In this document: piece by piece, positions 18,001 through 24,000 of the stretch
Layout of the letters: each line of letters starts with the position of its first letter
How positions within the stretch are numbered: the first letter of the stretch is position 1
NCBI GenBank assembly: GCA_043804695.1
Contig: JAZDIV010000134.1
Coordinates: 1 to 43,403 of the forward strand
Direction of reading: 5' to 3'
DNA: 43,403 bases
DNA from: PVC group bacterium
GTDB lineage: Bacteria; Auribacterota; Erginobacteria; Erginobacterales; Erginobacteraceae
Made by a program: the position numbers

Positions 18001-21000
18001 AGAATTTCCGGCTCCATAAAAAACTGCACGAACTCAACGGTGTCCTTTCCCTGGATCAAGAGTTTCCCCGATTTGTACAGACTGAGAGAGAGGTTTCCCC
18101 GGGAGGCGCCGAAGTGCGCGTGAGGGACGGCCTTGAAAAGGAAGCCCTTATTTTCCAGCCCCCTTTTCAGCTTTTCGGCCTGGTCGGCGGTGAGCTGGAC
18201 GGTGTACGAGGTGATTTGTTTGGTCAGATTGTCCATAGGTATAACAGCCGGGGGGTTTGCGGCTGGAAGAATTGCCGGAAGTCGAAACCGGCGGGGGCGT
18301 CCGGGATCCGGAAGAGGCGCCCCCGGAAAAGATCGAAGAGGGAATAGACCCGGCGGTACTCGATTACGGTCGCCGTCTCCAGGCCGGCCAGTCGGCGGGC
18401 CCGGTCGATGGCCAGGTCCCGGTAGCCGATCTCATCGACCAGGCCGTTGGCCAGGGCCTGGGTTCCGGTGAAGATCGCGCCGCCCGACACCTCTTCCAGC
18501 TGCTCCCGGTCCATGCCCCGACCCTCGGAGACCACATCCAGGAATCGCTCGTACATCTCATCCACCACCCCCTGGAGCATCGTCCGCTCTTCCGGGGTGA
18601 GCTCCCGGAACGGGGAGAGGATATCTTTCTCTTCCCCCCGCTTGATGGTGACATCCCGGACGCCGATCTTCCCCAGCAAGCCTTCCATGTTCAACGACTG
18701 GATGATCACCCCGATGCTGCCGGTCACCGTGGTGGGATGGGCGACAATGCAGTCCGCGGGGGCGGCAACGTAATATCCTCCCGACGCGGCCAGATCGCCG
18801 AGGACGGCCACCACCTTCTTCCCGGACTTCTGCAGTTCCTTGACCCGGTGGCAGATAATGTCGCTGGCGGTGATCCCTCCGCCCGGGCTGTCGATCTGGA
18901 GGACAACCGCCTTCACGGCCGGGTCCTCTTGCGCGGCCCGCAGCCGTTCCACCGCCTGTTCTCCCATGCTTTCTTTCTTCCAGAAACCCTGCGAATCGGA
19001 GAAGGTGATAAAACCCTCGACGGGGATGAGGACGATCTTATCCGCCCCCTCCCCTTCCACCACCACCTCCGAGAAGCGGTCGTGCCCGACTTTAACGGAT
19101 GCTTTTTCGGCGGCGCCCCTGATCAGGAACACATTGGCCGCCAGGCTGATCAGGAGACTTCCCCCCAGCACAACAACAAGAGCGCCCGCAATGATCCAGG
19201 GCCAGACGCTTCTTCGCTTCCGGACATACACCGGAGGATTAGGTTGAAGAGATTGATGCATAGCCAATACGGTTATTTATGTGGTCGAACAACAACGACT
19301 GAAGAGCAAAATTCCAAAGCCCAAATCAATAATTGGTGGGGGTGGCGGCGGCCTGGTTATCTTTCGCTCTGATGATTTTCAGGCCGGCGCTGGCGCCGAG
19401 CCGGGTGGCGCCGGCCCCGACCATCGCCTCGGCGTCTTCAAATGTTCTCACCCCGCCGGACGCCTTGACCCCGATATCCGGCCCCACCACCTTTCTCATC
19501 AGGGCGATATCCGCGACCGTCGCGCCGCCGGTGCTGAAGCCGGTCGAGGTTTTGACAAAGTCGGCTCCCGCCTCCACGCTCAGCTCGCAGGCCCTGACTT
19601 TCTCCTCGTCGATCAGCAGGCAGGTCTCCAGGATCACCTTGACCAGGATGTTGGGACGGGTCGCCCGCACCACCGACCGGATGTCTTCCCGGACCCGGTC
19701 GTACTGCCGGGACTTGATGAGGCCGACGTTGATCACCATGTCCACCTCGGTAGCCCCCTTACCGATCGCATCCCTGGTTTCATAGGCCTTGGTCTCGGAG
19801 GTGTCGGCGCCGAGCGGGAAGCCGATGACCGTGCAGACCTTGACCCCGGAACGCCGCAGCAACTTCGCCGAGAGCTCAACCCAGACCGGGTTGATGCAGA
19901 CCGAGGCGAAACAGTAGGTGTCCGCTTCCCGGCAGAGCTGACGGATCTGATCCTCGGTCGCTTCGGGCTTGAGCAGGGTGTGATCGATCATCCTCGCGAT
20001 CTTCGCCTCCACCGGGCCGATCCCCAGCTGGGTGCTGAGCCGGCAGACCCCGTTCGAGACCAGGCTCTCGATGAAATCGGGGCGCTTGGCGACGCACTGC
20101 CCGCACTCCAGACAGATGAGTCCGCTTTCCACGCCGCACGCCCCCCCGGACGGGGCGGACCCGTTCAGGGCGGCCATCACTTCCCGGGTGACTCGATCAA
20201 TCAATGCTTGGGTGTCCATTGTAAAATTTTTCTCCGAAAAATTTTAGTTCTTTAAATTAGCTCGCTGCGCTCGCTAATTTATATTATTCGTGTAATTCGT
20301 CGAAGATCCTGAGCGAAGTCGAAGGGCGAAATTCGTAGTTCTACTTTCGTTTGCGCTCGATGGCCATGATCTTGTTGACCCGGGGCCAGTGCCGTCCGCC
20401 GGCGAACTCGACGGTCAGCCAGAGGCTGACGATCTCCGCCGCCAGGGAGGGATTGAGTGTCTTCCCGCCCAGGGTCAGGACATTGGCGTCGTTGTGCTCG
20501 CGGCTGCTGCGGGCAGTGGTCAGGTCATAACACATGGCCGCCCTGATCCCCCGGACCTTGTTGGCCGCCATCGCCGAAGCCATCCCGAGGCTGTCGATCA
20601 TGATCCCCCGGTCGCAGTCCCCGGAAGCGACCGCCCGGGCGACTTGCTCCGCGAAATCGGGGTAATCCACGGCGGCGGCGCTGTCCGTCCCCATGTCCTT
20701 CACGGTGTACCCTTTTGCCTCCAGGAACCGGACCAGCTCCTCTTTCAGGGGGAATCCCCCGTGATCGGCCCCGATGGCGATCCTCTTCACCGACCCTTTC
20801 TTTTCAGTGACAGTGCTCATGGGAACCTCGTTGGCGGGCCCCTTCACGATCGGGGACGCCTCTTTCATCACCTCGTCGACAATTTTTTCCAGCCGGCTCT
20901 GATCCATCTCTTTATATCCGTTAGGCTATTCTCCTATTTCCACGGGAGTTTTGTTATTATGGGCCAGGCGAAACTCCAGCGTCAACATCTTTATTTATAA

Positions 21001-24000
21001 ATTAGCTCCCTTCGGTCGCTAATTTATGTCTATCGCATTTTATTGCAGCGAAAATAGATTGATAATGGATAGAGAATCAGTTTAGCTCCAACAGATCACA
21101 CTATAATCCGATTTATTTATAAATCGGATTAGTTTTGAAGCATAATAACGATAGTCCGGGATTATTCATGAAAAGTAAAATTCCATGAATAATCCGGGAT
21201 AATGCTATATTGTATGCAGTGCTCATGAACAAGCAGGGGGAAAGATTCTTTTTCCCGGCAAAAAGTATGTACACCAGGATAGACAACGCCATTATCCGCC
21301 GCCTGGGTGATATCGTGGGGCCGGAAAACCTGCTGACCGACCCGGAGCGGATGGAGGATTACGCCCATGACGAGAACCCCAACCTTCGTGCCGATCCCGG
21401 GGCGGTAGTCAAACCGACCACCGAGGAGGAGATCGCCCGCCTGGTCACGCTCGCCAACCGCGAGGGGTTCCCCGTGGTCGCCCGGGGCGGGGGCACCGGG
21501 GTCACCGGAGGGGCGCTGCCCCTGCACGGCGGCGCCGTCATCAGTCTGGAGCGGATGAACCGGGTCCTGGACATCGACGAGGAGAACATGATGGCGATCG
21601 TCCAGCCGGGGATCGTCACCGGGGATTTTCACCAGGCGGTGGAAGCGCGGGGGGTCTTTTATCCTCCCGACCCGGCCAGTCTCGAGAACTGCTCCCTGGG
21701 GGGAAACCTGGCGGAAGATGCCGGTGGGCCGCGGGCGGTGAAGTACGGGGTGACCCGCGATTACATCAGCGGCATCCGGGCGGTGCTCCCCACCGGCGAG
21801 ATCATCAATTACGGCGGCAAGCTGGCCAAGAACGCGACCGGCTACAATCTTCTCCATCTCCTGATCGGGTCCGAGGGGACGCTGGGGATCATCACCGAGA
21901 TCACCGCCCGGCTCCTGGTCAGGCCGGTCTTCCGAGTCGACCTCCTGGTCCCCTTCCCTTCCTGCCAGGCGGCCGTTCACTGCGTGTCCGCCGTGATCCG
22001 CCGCCACCTCACCCCCACCGCCATCGAGTTCATGGACCGCAAATGCCTGGAGATCAGCCGGCAGGTACTGGAAGAGGGAATCACCGCGGCCGACGCCGAA
22101 GCCCATCTCCTGATCGAGGTGGACGGGATGGAGGAGAACGAAGTGGAGCGCCGATACGAGGCGATCGGAGAGTTATGCCTGGAGGCGGGGGCGGATGACG
22201 TGATCGTGGCCGACTCGAAAAAGAACCAGGACAAAATCTGGAACACCAGAAGGAAGCTCCGGGACTCGCTCCGGGCGGTCAGCCCGATCATCTCCGCCCA
22301 GGACGTGGTTGTTCCCCGCAGGGAGATCTCCGCGCTGATGGCCGGAACGGAAATAATCGGCCGCCGGCACAGGCTGGAGATCGTCTCTTTCGGCCACGCC
22401 GGAGACGGCAACATTCATGTCAACTTCCTAAAAAGGGACATGGATGACAGGCAGTGGTCCGACGTCCTGAGAAAGGCGACCGGCGAGGTGTTCGCCCTGG
22501 CGGTGGAGCTGGGCGGGACCATCTCCGGCGAGCATGGGATCGGCCTCAGTAAACGGGACTATCTCCCGCTCGCGCTCATGCCCGCGGCGATCGAGAGCAT
22601 GCGCCGGATCAAGCACGCGCTTGACCCGAATAATATTCTCAACCCCGGTAAAATTTTCCCTCTCTCCCGACAAACCGGGAGAGAGGGAAAATTTTAACTG
22701 GTATAAGCTCGATAATCTGATATATAGTAGTCATTATCATTGTTCATCTCAATACAGGTACATTTTTTCGGAGAATATTTTATTATGCAGCTGGCAAGGG
22801 TGGTGGGGACGGTGGTCGCCACCAGGAAGGACGAGAAGATGGAGGGGGTGCCCTTCATGGTCCTCCGCGACCTGAATTTGGAAAACAAACCGACCGGAGG
22901 ATCCATCATCGCCGCCGACCCGATCGGGGTGGACCGGGGGGAAGTCGTGCTCTACTCCAAGGGAAGCTCCGCCCGGCAAACCGAGATGACCCGGGACCGT
23001 CCCAACGACGCGGTGATCTGCGGCGTGGTCGACCAGTGGGAAGTGAACGGGGTGAAGAAATATCACAAGTTTAAAGAAGAATAATCCGGCGGTTCACCGC
23101 CGGATCACTAAAATTTTTCGAAGAAAAAATTTTAAAATGAATTTAGGCAAAGTCATCGGCACCGTCGTCAGCACGCAGAAGATGGAGGCGTTCCGGGGGG
23201 TCAAGTTCCTGATCGTCCAGCCCCTGGACGAGAACCTGAAGCCGAACGGCGAACCGGTGGTCGCCTGCGACAGCCAGCAGGCCGGACCGGGTCAGATCGT
23301 GACCTTCATCGGAGGAAGGGAGGCGTCGCTGCCCCTTCCGGATCCGTTCAACCCTTCGGATGCCACCATTACTTCTATTGTTGATGAAGTCACTCTGGGT
23401 CGGTGATCAGTGATCGGTAATCAGTAATCGGTACATCCACGCCGGAGCGCTGAACATACTAACGTGAAGATCGGCAAGGTCATCGGGAACGTCGTCGCGA
23501 CGTTGAAACTGGAGCAGTACGAGGGGGAAAAACTGCTCCTGGTCAAGGTCCTCGATCCCGACGGGTCGGAGACCGCCGAGACCCTGGTCGCCTTCGACCG
23601 CTGCCAGGCGGGGAAAGGCGACGTCGTCCTCCTGATCGACGAGGGGAACAGCGCCCGGATGGTCCTGGAGACCGGGCCGACCGGCGTGGTCCGGGCGGTC
23701 TGTGTCGGCTACGTGGACGCGGTCAACACCTATAAATCCGATCCCGCTTCCTACGGCTCGTAGTCCCCTACCCTGCCCCCCTTTTTTTCAGAATCGGACG
23801 GATCAGTCCGATCCGTCGGATCCGACCGATCTTATTATTCACCCGACTCGGAACTATCTGCTCCCCATTGCCTATCGAAGCGGAGACCCCGATCATCATC
23901 AGGGCTCCCCACTCCCTACCTTCAACCACCGTTTGTATTCTTTTCGCACCCGGTTAAAAAACGATACGGCAGCTTCCGTCCGGTAGTCGGCGTAGGTCCA

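Follow-up and report, generated by a model that had tools for sequence, protein, structure and literature searches.

Apparent loss of ribonucleotide reductase in the Erginobacteraceae, and an operon that may supply deoxynucleotides from environmental DNA

Results

The window analysed here is a stretch of 43,403 nucleotides (contig JAZDIV010000134.1) from a genome of the family Erginobacteraceae (G000; other genomes are numbered G001 onwards). It carries deoC (19326..20219, minus strand), encoding a microcompartment-type deoxyribose-phosphate aldolase of 297 aa, residues 74-283 of which match TIGR00126 with 300.6 bits (cut-off 117.3). As the first-pass annotation had recorded, this copy has a long N-terminal extension and lies beside microcompartment vertex genes. 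The extension (73 residues; 20004..20219, minus strand) would form, judging from its sequence, an amphipathic helix at about residues 3-19, which we take to be of the encapsulation-peptide kind, followed by a Cys-rich linker. Similar helices are present on RpiB, an aldehyde dehydrogenase and a class II aldolase. Next to deoC, rpiB (20341..20907, minus strand; PF02502, E 4.6e-53; TIGR01120 above cut-off) encodes ribose-5-phosphate isomerase B, the second signature enzyme of the SPU microcompartment; it carries an extension of 40 residues. Both genes have extension-free second copies in this genome, deoC at C109:9116-9802 (47% identical to the window's) and rpiB on C63. Between this pair and the vertex genes lies the gene for a GlcD-like FAD-linked oxidase (21267..22697, plus strand; PF02913 and PF01565, under the GlcD cut-off). 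The three BMC-P vertex proteins, all PF03319 and on the plus strand, are encoded at 22785..23084 (E 3.8e-27), 23137..23406 (E 3.9e-24) and 23464..23763 (E 1e-20). The window also contains a methylthioadenosine-type nucleoside phosphorylase of the wider salvage set (5348..6223, minus strand; TIGR01694 above cut-off) and a dUTPase (6315..6764, minus strand; PRK00601 and TIGR00576 above cut-off), which may be kept for a sanitising role though no dUMP-type thymidylate synthase is evident.

A PF01791 aldolase and a PF02502 isomerase beside shell genes, as found in the window, are the mark of an SPU locus. The same type was recognised at C122:16581-23441, which encodes the acylating aldehyde dehydrogenase, BMC-H, BMC-T, BMC-P and PduS-like proteins; a block of the C122 type is also present in G002, G007 and G052. 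The DeoC of the window is probably cargo of a known catabolic microcompartment, together with the acylating aldehyde dehydrogenase. The system has the DeoC and RpiB signature enzymes, the aldehyde dehydrogenase, the PduS-like protein and all three shell protein types in common with the SPU described previously (PMC8217296), but here it is split between a main locus (C122) and a satellite (the window). SPU microcompartments have been interpreted as serving DNA degradation (PMC8217296), also in Erginobacter itself (PMC9324843); an archaeal form is known (PMC12747264), and the BMC of Erginobacter and Tritonobacter has been described (PMC9324843). That deoB and deoC are kept more plausibly reflects a surplus of deoxyribose.

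The first-pass annotation had proposed that this bacterium and its relatives lack ribonucleotide reductase (RNR), ThyX and CTP synthase, and its family counts for these genes were reproduced. Among the nine genomes of the family, PF02867 was found in none (control, 12/14), PF13597 only in G001 (control, 6/14), ThyX in one and CTP synthase in none (control, 14/14); each of the four was found in 0 of the 9 genomes of families f16 and f17 (eight from f17). Most of the 56 other Auribacterota do have an RNR, 52 in our recount rather than the 51 given before, and the four without it are 74, 77, 86 and 94% complete. ThyX is present in 47 of these 56 genomes and PyrG in 54. The RNR-less set comprises 17 genomes from two classes, of which 11 are 92-97% complete; these are anaerobes of sediment, lake and digester type, with genomes of 2.3-4.5 Mb. 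In G000, 54,009 six-frame ORFs compared with profiles built from 17 NrdD and 30 NrdA/NrdJ sequences of its kin gave nothing better than E 6.5, and neither an ATP-cone nor a class I/II RNR active-site motif was found. True TK and true dNK were not found in G000 either, again as annotated, and a dNK above cut-off was present in two of the five family genomes tested, the number given before. Note that a true TK is present in 5/6 RNR-positive genomes of the order (14 genomes), compared to 0/17 RNR-less genomes.

The G000 genome also has no GuaA ortholog, and motifs of purA, purB, purF, purM, purL and guaB were not found among its called genes, but it does encode PurH, a PurC-like protein and PyrF. 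ThyA was found in 0/3 genomes of genera g3/g4 and in 0/5 genomes of f16/f17. A possible thymidylate synthase of the ThyA type (C31:24120-24743) was not supported as such: it scores 82 bits against an equivalog cut-off of 174.55 and has Asp at the dUMP-specificity position, where dUMP-type enzymes have Asn. Among five genomes, homologues of this type occur only in G000 and G002. Since ligA is missing from G000 alone among the 14 order genomes (there is a gap between C19 and C72), and rpsB, tsf and frr motifs were not found in the same assembly, its own gene absences weigh little. The absence holds at the level of the lineage; G000 alone proves little.

RNR is not absent throughout the family. 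Eight of its nine genomes have no NrdD, but the genus of G001 (g2) keeps nrdG-nrdD-thyX, seen on a 249-kb metagenome contig (L269). Half of the family's metagenome clusters fall in this RNR-keeping genus, and 13 ThyX clusters are 75-100% identical to the G001 ThyX. Five of them, at 75-83%, could belong to further genera of the family, so retention may be broader than these nine genomes suggest. In the tree, G001 is sister to the RNR-less G008, and three trees with G001 basal were rejected (AU p <= 0.004). Since the RNR-keeping genus nests inside the family, RNR appears to have been lost repeatedly.

Outside the window, the genomes of the order share an operon (in G000, C117:14204-24342, continuing at C8:184-2917) with pdp, a second comEC, two comEA genes, and genes for a metallo-beta-lactamase (MBL)-fold nuclease and a DHH protein, deoB, pnp, a DEDD exonuclease gene and DUF3006. 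Its gene order is kept in the 13/13 genomes whose locus was read. In support of the earlier statement that deoB is kept, DeoB passed the TIGR01696 cut-off in 3/3 family genomes, and deoB lies in the operon at 7/7 family loci read. The second ComEC (1280 aa in G000) is present in 14/14 order genomes, split in G003 and a fragment in G004, and in G046. It has in common with the competence machinery the competence domain (PF03772), the OB fold (PF13567), the invariant channel motif HVFAVSGLH and the accompanying ComEA and MBL-fold nuclease, and aligns along its length with 30bt_A (E 1.7e-29). Unlike the canonical protein, it is a second, longer paralogue with pdp, deoB, pnp and two exonuclease genes as neighbours, and the C-terminal MBL domain lacks the nuclease metal motif in all copies read. 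The separate nuclease, predicted to be exported as are both ComEA proteins, retains both THPDxDH and HHGS in each of the 10 copies listed by the motif scan. The canonical ComEC is encoded elsewhere in the genome, as are DprA and ComF, which would leave the second channel free for another task.

The DHH protein starts with a single helix followed by basic residues, a predicted membrane anchor, and its DxD, D, DHH and GH motifs are invariant in 13 genomes. The protein has both the DHH and the DHHA1 domain, metal ligands included, and its model reaches pLDDT 91. The best-matching folds are RecJ-type (5yh1, Z 20.4, rmsd 5.0 over 324; 7bhi, Z 20.0, rmsd 3.4 over 295); with Z 17 against RecJ and Z 11 against NrnA, the modelled fold is nearer RecJ, which makes the protein a candidate exonuclease. 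Other substrates of DHH proteins are nanoRNA, cyclic dinucleotides and pAp, a point against the DNA-feeding reading discussed below.

The operon is equally intact in the six RNR-positive genomes of the order. In f17, a protein search that scored only eight candidates per genome found the second ComEC in 0/8 genomes, and two genomes tested by family search have one ComEC each; pdp and comEA are still together in 4/5, with the DEDD gene in 2/5. On these counts, the operon is not a universal answer to RNR loss in the RNR-less genomes.

Discussion

We give a probability of about 0.5 to the reading that the RNR-less lineages are auxotrophic for deoxynucleotides and feed on environmental DNA by means of this operon. 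The idea that deoxynucleotides must come from outside is supported, and from gene content and order, motifs, folds and the tree the candidate enzymes, with their activities, direction and flux, can be proposed. ComEA would bind environmental DNA, the exported nuclease would strip one strand and the second ComEC would let the remaining strand through. In the cytoplasm, the tethered DHH and the DEDD exonucleases would cut it to 5'-dNMPs, and Tmk, Cmk, Gmk, Adk and Ndk, all present in G000, would convert these to dNTPs, so that RNR, thymidylate synthase, TK and dNK would be dispensable. The surplus deoxyribose would be burnt. Bases and ribonucleosides would be salvaged for RNA (Apt, Hpt, Upp, Udk and CNT carriers), which would explain why PyrG and GuaA were lost. 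The operon would predate the losses and have permitted them repeatedly. The distribution of TK fits a supply of dNMPs and fits thymidine salvage poorly. The operon may nevertheless be purely catabolic, since it is intact in RNR-positive genomes too. In the CPR, competence machinery has been proposed to feed nucleotides, which was rejected on testing in one Saccharibacterium, whose comEC proved dispensable for nucleotide supply (PMC10633639). More tentatively, these may be the first free-living cells with chromosomes made wholly from eaten DNA, with a nutritional ComEC paralogue and a tethered exonuclease, and with RNR, thymidylate synthase, TK and CTP synthase lost at least four times.

It is possible, if on the unlikely side, that DNA is instead digested outside the cytoplasm, that deoxynucleosides enter through CNT carriers and that P0001, an unannotated P-loop kinase of the AAA_28 family (203 aa; C76:1794-2405), acts as a broad deoxynucleoside kinase, helped by the patchy true dNKs; the two routes could run in parallel. 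CNT carriers are present in 5/5 genomes (two in G000), which also encodes seven more nuclease-fold homologues. A UshA-like 5'-nucleotidase, CNT and the candidate kinase make a complete nucleoside route, which we counted against DNA import. P0001 is full length and 65-85% conserved in 13/14 order genomes (a 42-residue piece in G006), is found in G046 and 4/8 f17 genomes and in 0/56 other Auribacterota, and adjoins purH in the family loci read. In Foldseek, the deoxyadenosine kinase of Mycoplasma mycoides (E 9e-8) and that of Giardia come out on top; the Mycoplasma enzyme is also the best PDB match of the family profile (E 3e-4), the two being colinear over the P-loop, Glu, Gln and DR motifs. 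However, VIA-align gives a tie: the nicotinamide-riboside kinase domain of NadR scores Z 18.4 (rmsd 2.7 over 176) and Z 18.1, Giardia dAK scores Z 17.5 (rmsd 3.2 over 187), and thymidylate kinases reach Z 16. Although P0001 shares fold and motifs with the dNK/NadR kinases (PDB 2jat, 8puu, 8x7f, 6gye), it is 15-19% identical to them, has an AAA_28-type lid and falls under the PF01712 dNK cut-off (17.4 bits vs 27; AAA_28, 38 bits). Moreover, it is absent or fragmentary in four of the eight f17 genomes, which have neither TK nor RNR, is present in RNR-positive kin and would need to accept all four deoxynucleosides.

We consider it improbable that the nrd-thyX block is simply missing from the bins, or that they hide an RNR too divergent to match the profiles. 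All genomes are bins, G000 has its ligA gap, the RNR-keeping clusters are numerous, and the RNR searches of the kin covered PF02867 and PF13597. As the first-pass annotation had warned, the lost genes cluster in kin, where nrdG-nrdD-thyX(-pyrG) is a single block. Against this, RNR, ThyX, TK and PyrG are jointly missing in all 17 genomes, and in G001 TK and nrdD are on different contigs. The naive chance that one genome from each of five lineages all miss one locus is 5e-7. In G000, the ortholog (74%) of the gene that comes after the block in L269 lies within a 48-kb contig and is preceded, on the one flank examined, by unrelated genes, and even the degenerate NrdD copies of f11 were detected by PF13597.

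Direct uptake of nucleotides from host or prey cells, in the manner of a parasite or predator, is quite unlikely. The RNR-less cells listed in RNRdb are all parasites or endosymbionts (PMC2795772), and PilT/PilB-type ATPases and pilin-like genes are present here, but these genomes are large (3-4.5 Mb), with amino-acid, peptidoglycan and Kdo genes, and the lineage is described as fermentative heterotrophs (PMC9324843). The nucleotide carrier PF03219 was found in 0/5 genomes, a weak result since controls gave no match either. Known RNR-less organisms (Borreliella burgdorferi, Ureaplasma, Buchnera Cc, Giardia, Entamoeba; PMC2795772, PMC10121223) likewise have no RNR of any class and obtain deoxynucleotides from outside, though the comparison here is with bins and not closed genomes. 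They have small genomes, mostly without deoB, whereas ours are environmental anaerobes with deoB, deoC, a microcompartment and, in the order, the DNA-uptake operon, and no TK. Retention of deoB is not, as had been claimed, unique to the present lineages: two Buchnera strains reportedly have deoB without RNR (PMC10121223).

Least credible of all is the earlier bold suggestion of reverse deoxyriboaldolase synthesis, in which acetaldehyde and glyceraldehyde-3-phosphate would give deoxyribose-5-phosphate, and DeoB and phosphorylases deoxynucleosides: the genome encodes DeoC in two copies as well as DeoB, Pdp and Pnp, the shell could concentrate acetaldehyde and P0001 could complete the route, but the compartment's acylating aldehyde dehydrogenase removes acetaldehyde, deoB sits in a DNA-uptake and phosphorolysis operon, and thymine would have to be imported anyway, ThyX and a thymidylate synthase being absent. 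Without CTP synthase and a phosphorylase that accepts cytosine, no route to dC is known. Deoxyribose plus bases did not sustain growth of RNR-less E. coli, which lost deoB (PMC10121223).

Returning to DNA as the source, the Izemoplasmatales likewise live anaerobically, feed on DNA and break down deoxyribose, but most keep de novo nucleotide synthesis, and their description does not mention ComEC or RNR (PMC8289736). Their family UBA5603, without many de novo genes, may be a parallel case. We found no literature linking the SPU microcompartment to RNR loss or to the ComEC operon; the association of the ComEC/pdp/deoB operon with RNR loss is new here.

Ribonucleotide reduction has been held dispensable only inside hosts. 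Here it has apparently been lost repeatedly in environmental anaerobes with larger genomes, with a visible replacement, which indicates a specialist niche in sediment DNA turnover. Two unannotated enzyme families, the tethered RecJ-fold nuclease and the dNK-fold kinase, can be assayed in E. coli. The system opens two old questions to test: can nutrition be what competence-type uptake is selected for, and how do cells that still burn deoxyribose manage without RNR? If true, the system would offer a natural and testable example of DNA uptake retained for feeding, not for sex.

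Searches for ribonucleotide reductase, ThyX, CTP synthase and thymidine kinase

Our results suggested that ribonucleotide reductase (RNR) has been lost from most of the family of the window (f1: genera g1, with G000, the genome under study, and G002; g2, G001; g3, G003-G007; and g4, G008) and from a second group of the phylum (f16 and f17, G046-G054). Class I/II RNR (PF02867) was found in 0/9 f1 and 0/9 f16/f17 genomes (control 12/14), and NrdD (PF13597) in G001 only among the nine f1 genomes and in none of the nine f16/f17 genomes (control 6/14), which reproduces the counts of the first-pass annotation and its second RNR-less set. 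G000 (2.97 Mb in 155 contigs; completeness 88%) was searched with profiles built on 17 NrdD-type and 30 NrdA/NrdJ proteins of its kin, without a match to RNR (best E 6.5 and 14, respectively); tblastn was negative as well (best E 0.095), and no ATP-cone was present. By family searches, RNR is present in each of the five order genomes outside f1 (families f2-f4, G021-G025) and in 52 of the 56 further phylum genomes, the four without it being 74, 77, 86 and 94% complete. Thus, the earlier statement that nearly all other Auribacterota have an RNR holds, with its count of 51 corrected to 52.

ThyX and CTP synthase followed a similar distribution. The family search for ThyX matched 1/9 f1, 0/1 f4, 0/9 f16/f17 and 47/56 other phylum genomes; that for CTP synthase (control 14/14) matched 0/9 f1, 0/1 f4, 0/9 f16/f17, 4/4 f2/f3 and 54/56 others, the f1 figures being those already reported for both. 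Strong thymidine kinase (TK) matches (PF00265, 79 genomes) were confined to G001, G022, G023, G024 and G025, all RNR-positive; the family matched 26 genomes, and the 21 with weak matches only (E 8.5e-5 to 1e-3, frames of 355-573 aa, including G004, G005 and G006) were set aside. ThyA was found in 2/5 f1 genomes tested, both of g1, and in 0/5 f16/f17 genomes. This divergent archaeal-type protein, present in g1 as annotated before (G000 C31:24120-24743, locus L142), was rejected as the dTMP source: it occurs in g1 only and has Asp at what we take to be the dUMP-specificity position. It may modify dCMP.

Other states were seen elsewhere in the phylum. G025 (f4, 92% complete) has NrdJ and TK and lacks ThyX and PyrG, a possible half-way state. 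All four f11 genomes (G036-G039; loci L028-L030) encode a degenerate, shortened NrdD-like protein of 400-520 aa that has kept the ATP-cone and lost the catalytic end, and which is the sole RNR-like match of G039 (94% complete). The weak NrdD-family matches of f18/f19 (G055, G056, G058, G059; frames of 625-634 aa, E 1e-4 to 1e-9) are perhaps another divergent barrel protein. Finally, 8/9 f22 genomes (G064-G072) carry a tandem pair of CTP synthase genes.

Genome gaps, the RNR-positive genus and the number of losses

Alone among the 14 order genomes, G000 lacks ligA, for which kin point to an 8-kb gap between contigs C19 and C72, and its rpsB, tsf and frr motifs were not found either; the claim of RNR loss therefore rests on kin. 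The absence of PyrH in G000 was discarded because these same three motifs are missing. The ligA synteny was also rejected as a deletion scar: nrd lies beside ligA only in G024, and the neighbours of ligA in f1 and f2 are genes other than nrd, so that what it reveals is a gap in G000. Around the PALP and amidohydrolase genes, gene order is not conserved. A one-flank scar of the nrd-thyX block does exist in G000: the gene that follows the block nrdG-nrdD-thyX-guaA-hpt-PRT on metagenome contig L269 has its G000 ortholog (74%) within contig C31 (48 kb), where the genes upstream are unrelated. Naive incompleteness products come to 1.5e-9 over the eight f1 genomes, 5e-11 over f16/f17 and 5e-7 over five lineages with one genome each; they indicate scale only, because related genomes do not count as independent and linked genes go missing jointly. 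We consider the loss very likely to be real in g1, g3 and f16/f17, and probably in g4; an artefact or a hidden RNR is an unlikely explanation of these absences.

The first-pass annotation had named one family genome with NrdD; this is G001 (g2), which retains the nrdG-nrdD-thyX block, so the RNR-less state covers the genomes of g1, g3 and g4 but not the family as a whole. Mis-binning of this contig was rejected, because its GC3 is 0.64, compared to 0.58-0.69 at five other G001 loci, and the same block is also present on L269. Among the best 120 of 856 ThyX clusters of the protein collection, 13 were 75-100% identical to the G001 protein, eight of them at >=86%; the five at 75-83% could come from other f1 genera. 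G001 is also the nearest genome for 10 of 20 family-level clusters of P0001 (a 203-aa P-loop kinase of the AAA_28 family), at 87-100%, and for 18/46 clusters of the DHH protein described below. These shares make g2, which keeps the block, the commonest branch in metagenomes.

In the RpoB tree (28 genomes), f16 and f17 form one clade (0.96), separate from the order. A concatenated tree of 13 genomes (Pdp, ComEC2, DHH, DeoB, MBL, RpoB and LigA; G003 and G004 excluded; rooted by G046 and f3) places G001 as sister to G008 (1.0), and three trees with a basal G001 were rejected (AU p <= 0.004). Note that 5/7 of these genes come from the operon described below and have possibly moved sideways; the G046 operon copy groups with f1, unlike its RpoB. 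The LigA and DUF362 trees did not resolve f1. The NrdD of G001 clusters with that of the order. With G001 nested in f1, these data give at least three losses within f1, in g1, g3 and g4 (g4 being represented by a single genome), plus a further loss in f16/f17.

The ComEC2 operon

A ComEC family search revealed a second ComEC of 1280 aa (ComEC2); in G000, G006 and G007 its gene lies 4 kb upstream of deoB. The G000 operon reads pdp, comEC2, comEA, comEA, exported MBL-fold nuclease, DHH and deoB, and on contig C8 pnp, DEDD exonuclease and DUF3006; both halves lie on a single contig in G002, G005, G006, G007 and G008. The order is retained in G001, G021-G024, G025 (whose contig stops after DHH, without a separate MBL gene) and G046 (where adenosine deaminase replaces pnp). 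ComEC2 is present in 14/14 order genomes and G046, and in 0/8 of f17; relatives at 35% in four f18/f19 genomes are not within such an operon. In f17, pdp and comEA are adjacent in 4/5 genomes, with the DEDD gene there in 2/5, deoB is divergent and under the cut-off, and the single ComEC has kept its nuclease motif. When the genome collection was scanned for patterns taken from the DHH alignment, a method that reaches close relatives only, 13 loci came up, including L255 (Ca. Euphemobacter frigidus) and L266 (Ca. Tritonobacter lacicola).

In ComEC2 the channel motif is invariant and its own nuclease motif has been lost, while the exported MBL-fold copy retains this motif. The model of the DHH protein is nearest to RecJ-type exonucleases, and the protein's single N-terminal helix followed by basic residues suggests that the domain should face the cytoplasm.

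Two further observations concern gene copies. G002 carries the operon, the microcompartment (BMC) locus and P0001 in two copies each (85% identity to G000), consistent with its 8% contamination. G000 has three paralogous three-gene cassettes (C7:3946-6919, C37:19002-21651 and C57:488-3169), each with an MBL-fold nuclease homologue and then two conserved unknown genes.

To our knowledge, RNR loss is known in CPR and DPANN. In the literature searched, which took in neither subscription papers nor bioRxiv supplements, no loss of RNR is reported for Auribacterota, nor an operon in which a ComEC gene accompanies pdp and deoB, nor the two combined; the accessible part of PMC12057145 does not treat RNR. 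Feeding on nucleotides through ComEC has been proposed for CPR and was unnecessary in one Saccharibacterium (PMC10633639). The DNA-eating Izemoplasmatales differ in that they mostly retain de novo synthesis (PMC8289736, PMC7761423).

The deoC-rpiB locus and the microcompartment

As the first-pass annotation had it, the window's deoC (19326-20219) has an N-terminal extension and lies near vertex genes. It is followed by rpiB (20341-20907), also extended, and then by a GlcD-like oxidase gene and three BMC-P genes. The main BMC locus, on contig C122, encodes BMC-T, BMC-H, BMC-P, an acylating aldehyde dehydrogenase, a PduS-like protein, BMC-T, a class II aldolase and an HTH regulator; this block is also present in G002, G007 and G052. 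The SPU type of microcompartment is defined by DeoC together with RpiB and has been interpreted as breaking down sugar phosphates derived from DNA (PMC8217296, PMC12747264), and a DNA-degrading BMC was already predicted for Ca. Erginobacter occultus and Ca. Tritonobacter lacicola (PMC9324843), so this part of the story is known. The accessible text of the latter paper does not contain the word 'ribonucleotide' or mention RNR, and four supplementary files held none of the six terms searched for. Elsewhere in the window, the gene at 15330-17075 (-) joins TPR repeats to a PHP domain of the DNA polymerase III alpha type and has no polymerase core.

Sources of deoxynucleotides

RecJ-type and DEDD exonucleases release 5'-dNMPs. 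We favour, at a probability of about 0.5, a direct supply of dNMPs from imported DNA. Formed in the cytoplasm, they would be converted to dNTPs by Tmk, Cmk, Gmk, Adk and Ndk, all present in G000; RNR, synthase and nucleoside kinase would be unneeded, and the joint disappearance of TK, nrdD and thyX would thereby be explained. Any surplus would reach the microcompartment by way of SurE, Pdp, Pnp and DeoB. For RNA, precursors would be supplied by Apt, Hpt, Upp, two kinases of the Udk family and the NCS2 and CNT carriers, with cytidine having to be imported for CTP. RNR-less E. coli gave up deoB only under a scarcity of deoxynucleosides (PMC10121223), so the retained deoB, deoC and cdd fit a surplus. 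Contrary to the earlier claim, keeping deoB is not unique to these bacteria: two Buchnera strains are reported to have it without nrd genes (PMC10121223). The search for a nucleotide carrier was negative, which carries little weight since its positive control was silent.

The G000 Ndk (C6:2502-3677, L173) has 391 aa and two NDK-type stretches. OMP decarboxylase (C127:33646-34338) is encoded in G000, as in G006 and G007, although motif searches of G000 turned up neither aspartate carbamoyltransferase nor dihydroorotate dehydrogenase. Contig C63 (L168:12846-14039) encodes a hexokinase of eukaryote type (PF00349, PF03727).

Alternatively, DNA could be digested outside and salvaged as nucleosides with P0001 (C76:1794-2405) as the candidate deoxynucleoside kinase, a less likely reading, about half as probable as direct supply. 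The distribution of P0001 was taken from a search with the protein itself, because matches to the PF13521 family also include thymidylate kinases and other proteins. P0001 does not extend beyond the order and f16/f17; its sequences make up a single compact cluster, with relatives at 36-39% standing apart; and its fold resembles deoxynucleoside kinases but ties with the NadR kinase domain. A UshA-like lipoprotein and seven further MBL-fold nuclease homologues would complete the outside route. True deoxynucleoside kinases occur in two of five family genomes tested, as reported before; these are G005 and G008, and their kinases have no ortholog in G000. Dependence on a host, the condition of all five RNR-less cells of RNRdb, which are parasites or endosymbionts throughout (PMC2795772), is improbable here. 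The boldest earlier proposal, dNTPs made by deoxyriboaldolase in reverse, is the least credible; such synthesis did not arise in RNR-less E. coli (PMC10121223).

Direct dNMP supply and the nucleoside route may run together, and either would mean a life on foreign DNA.
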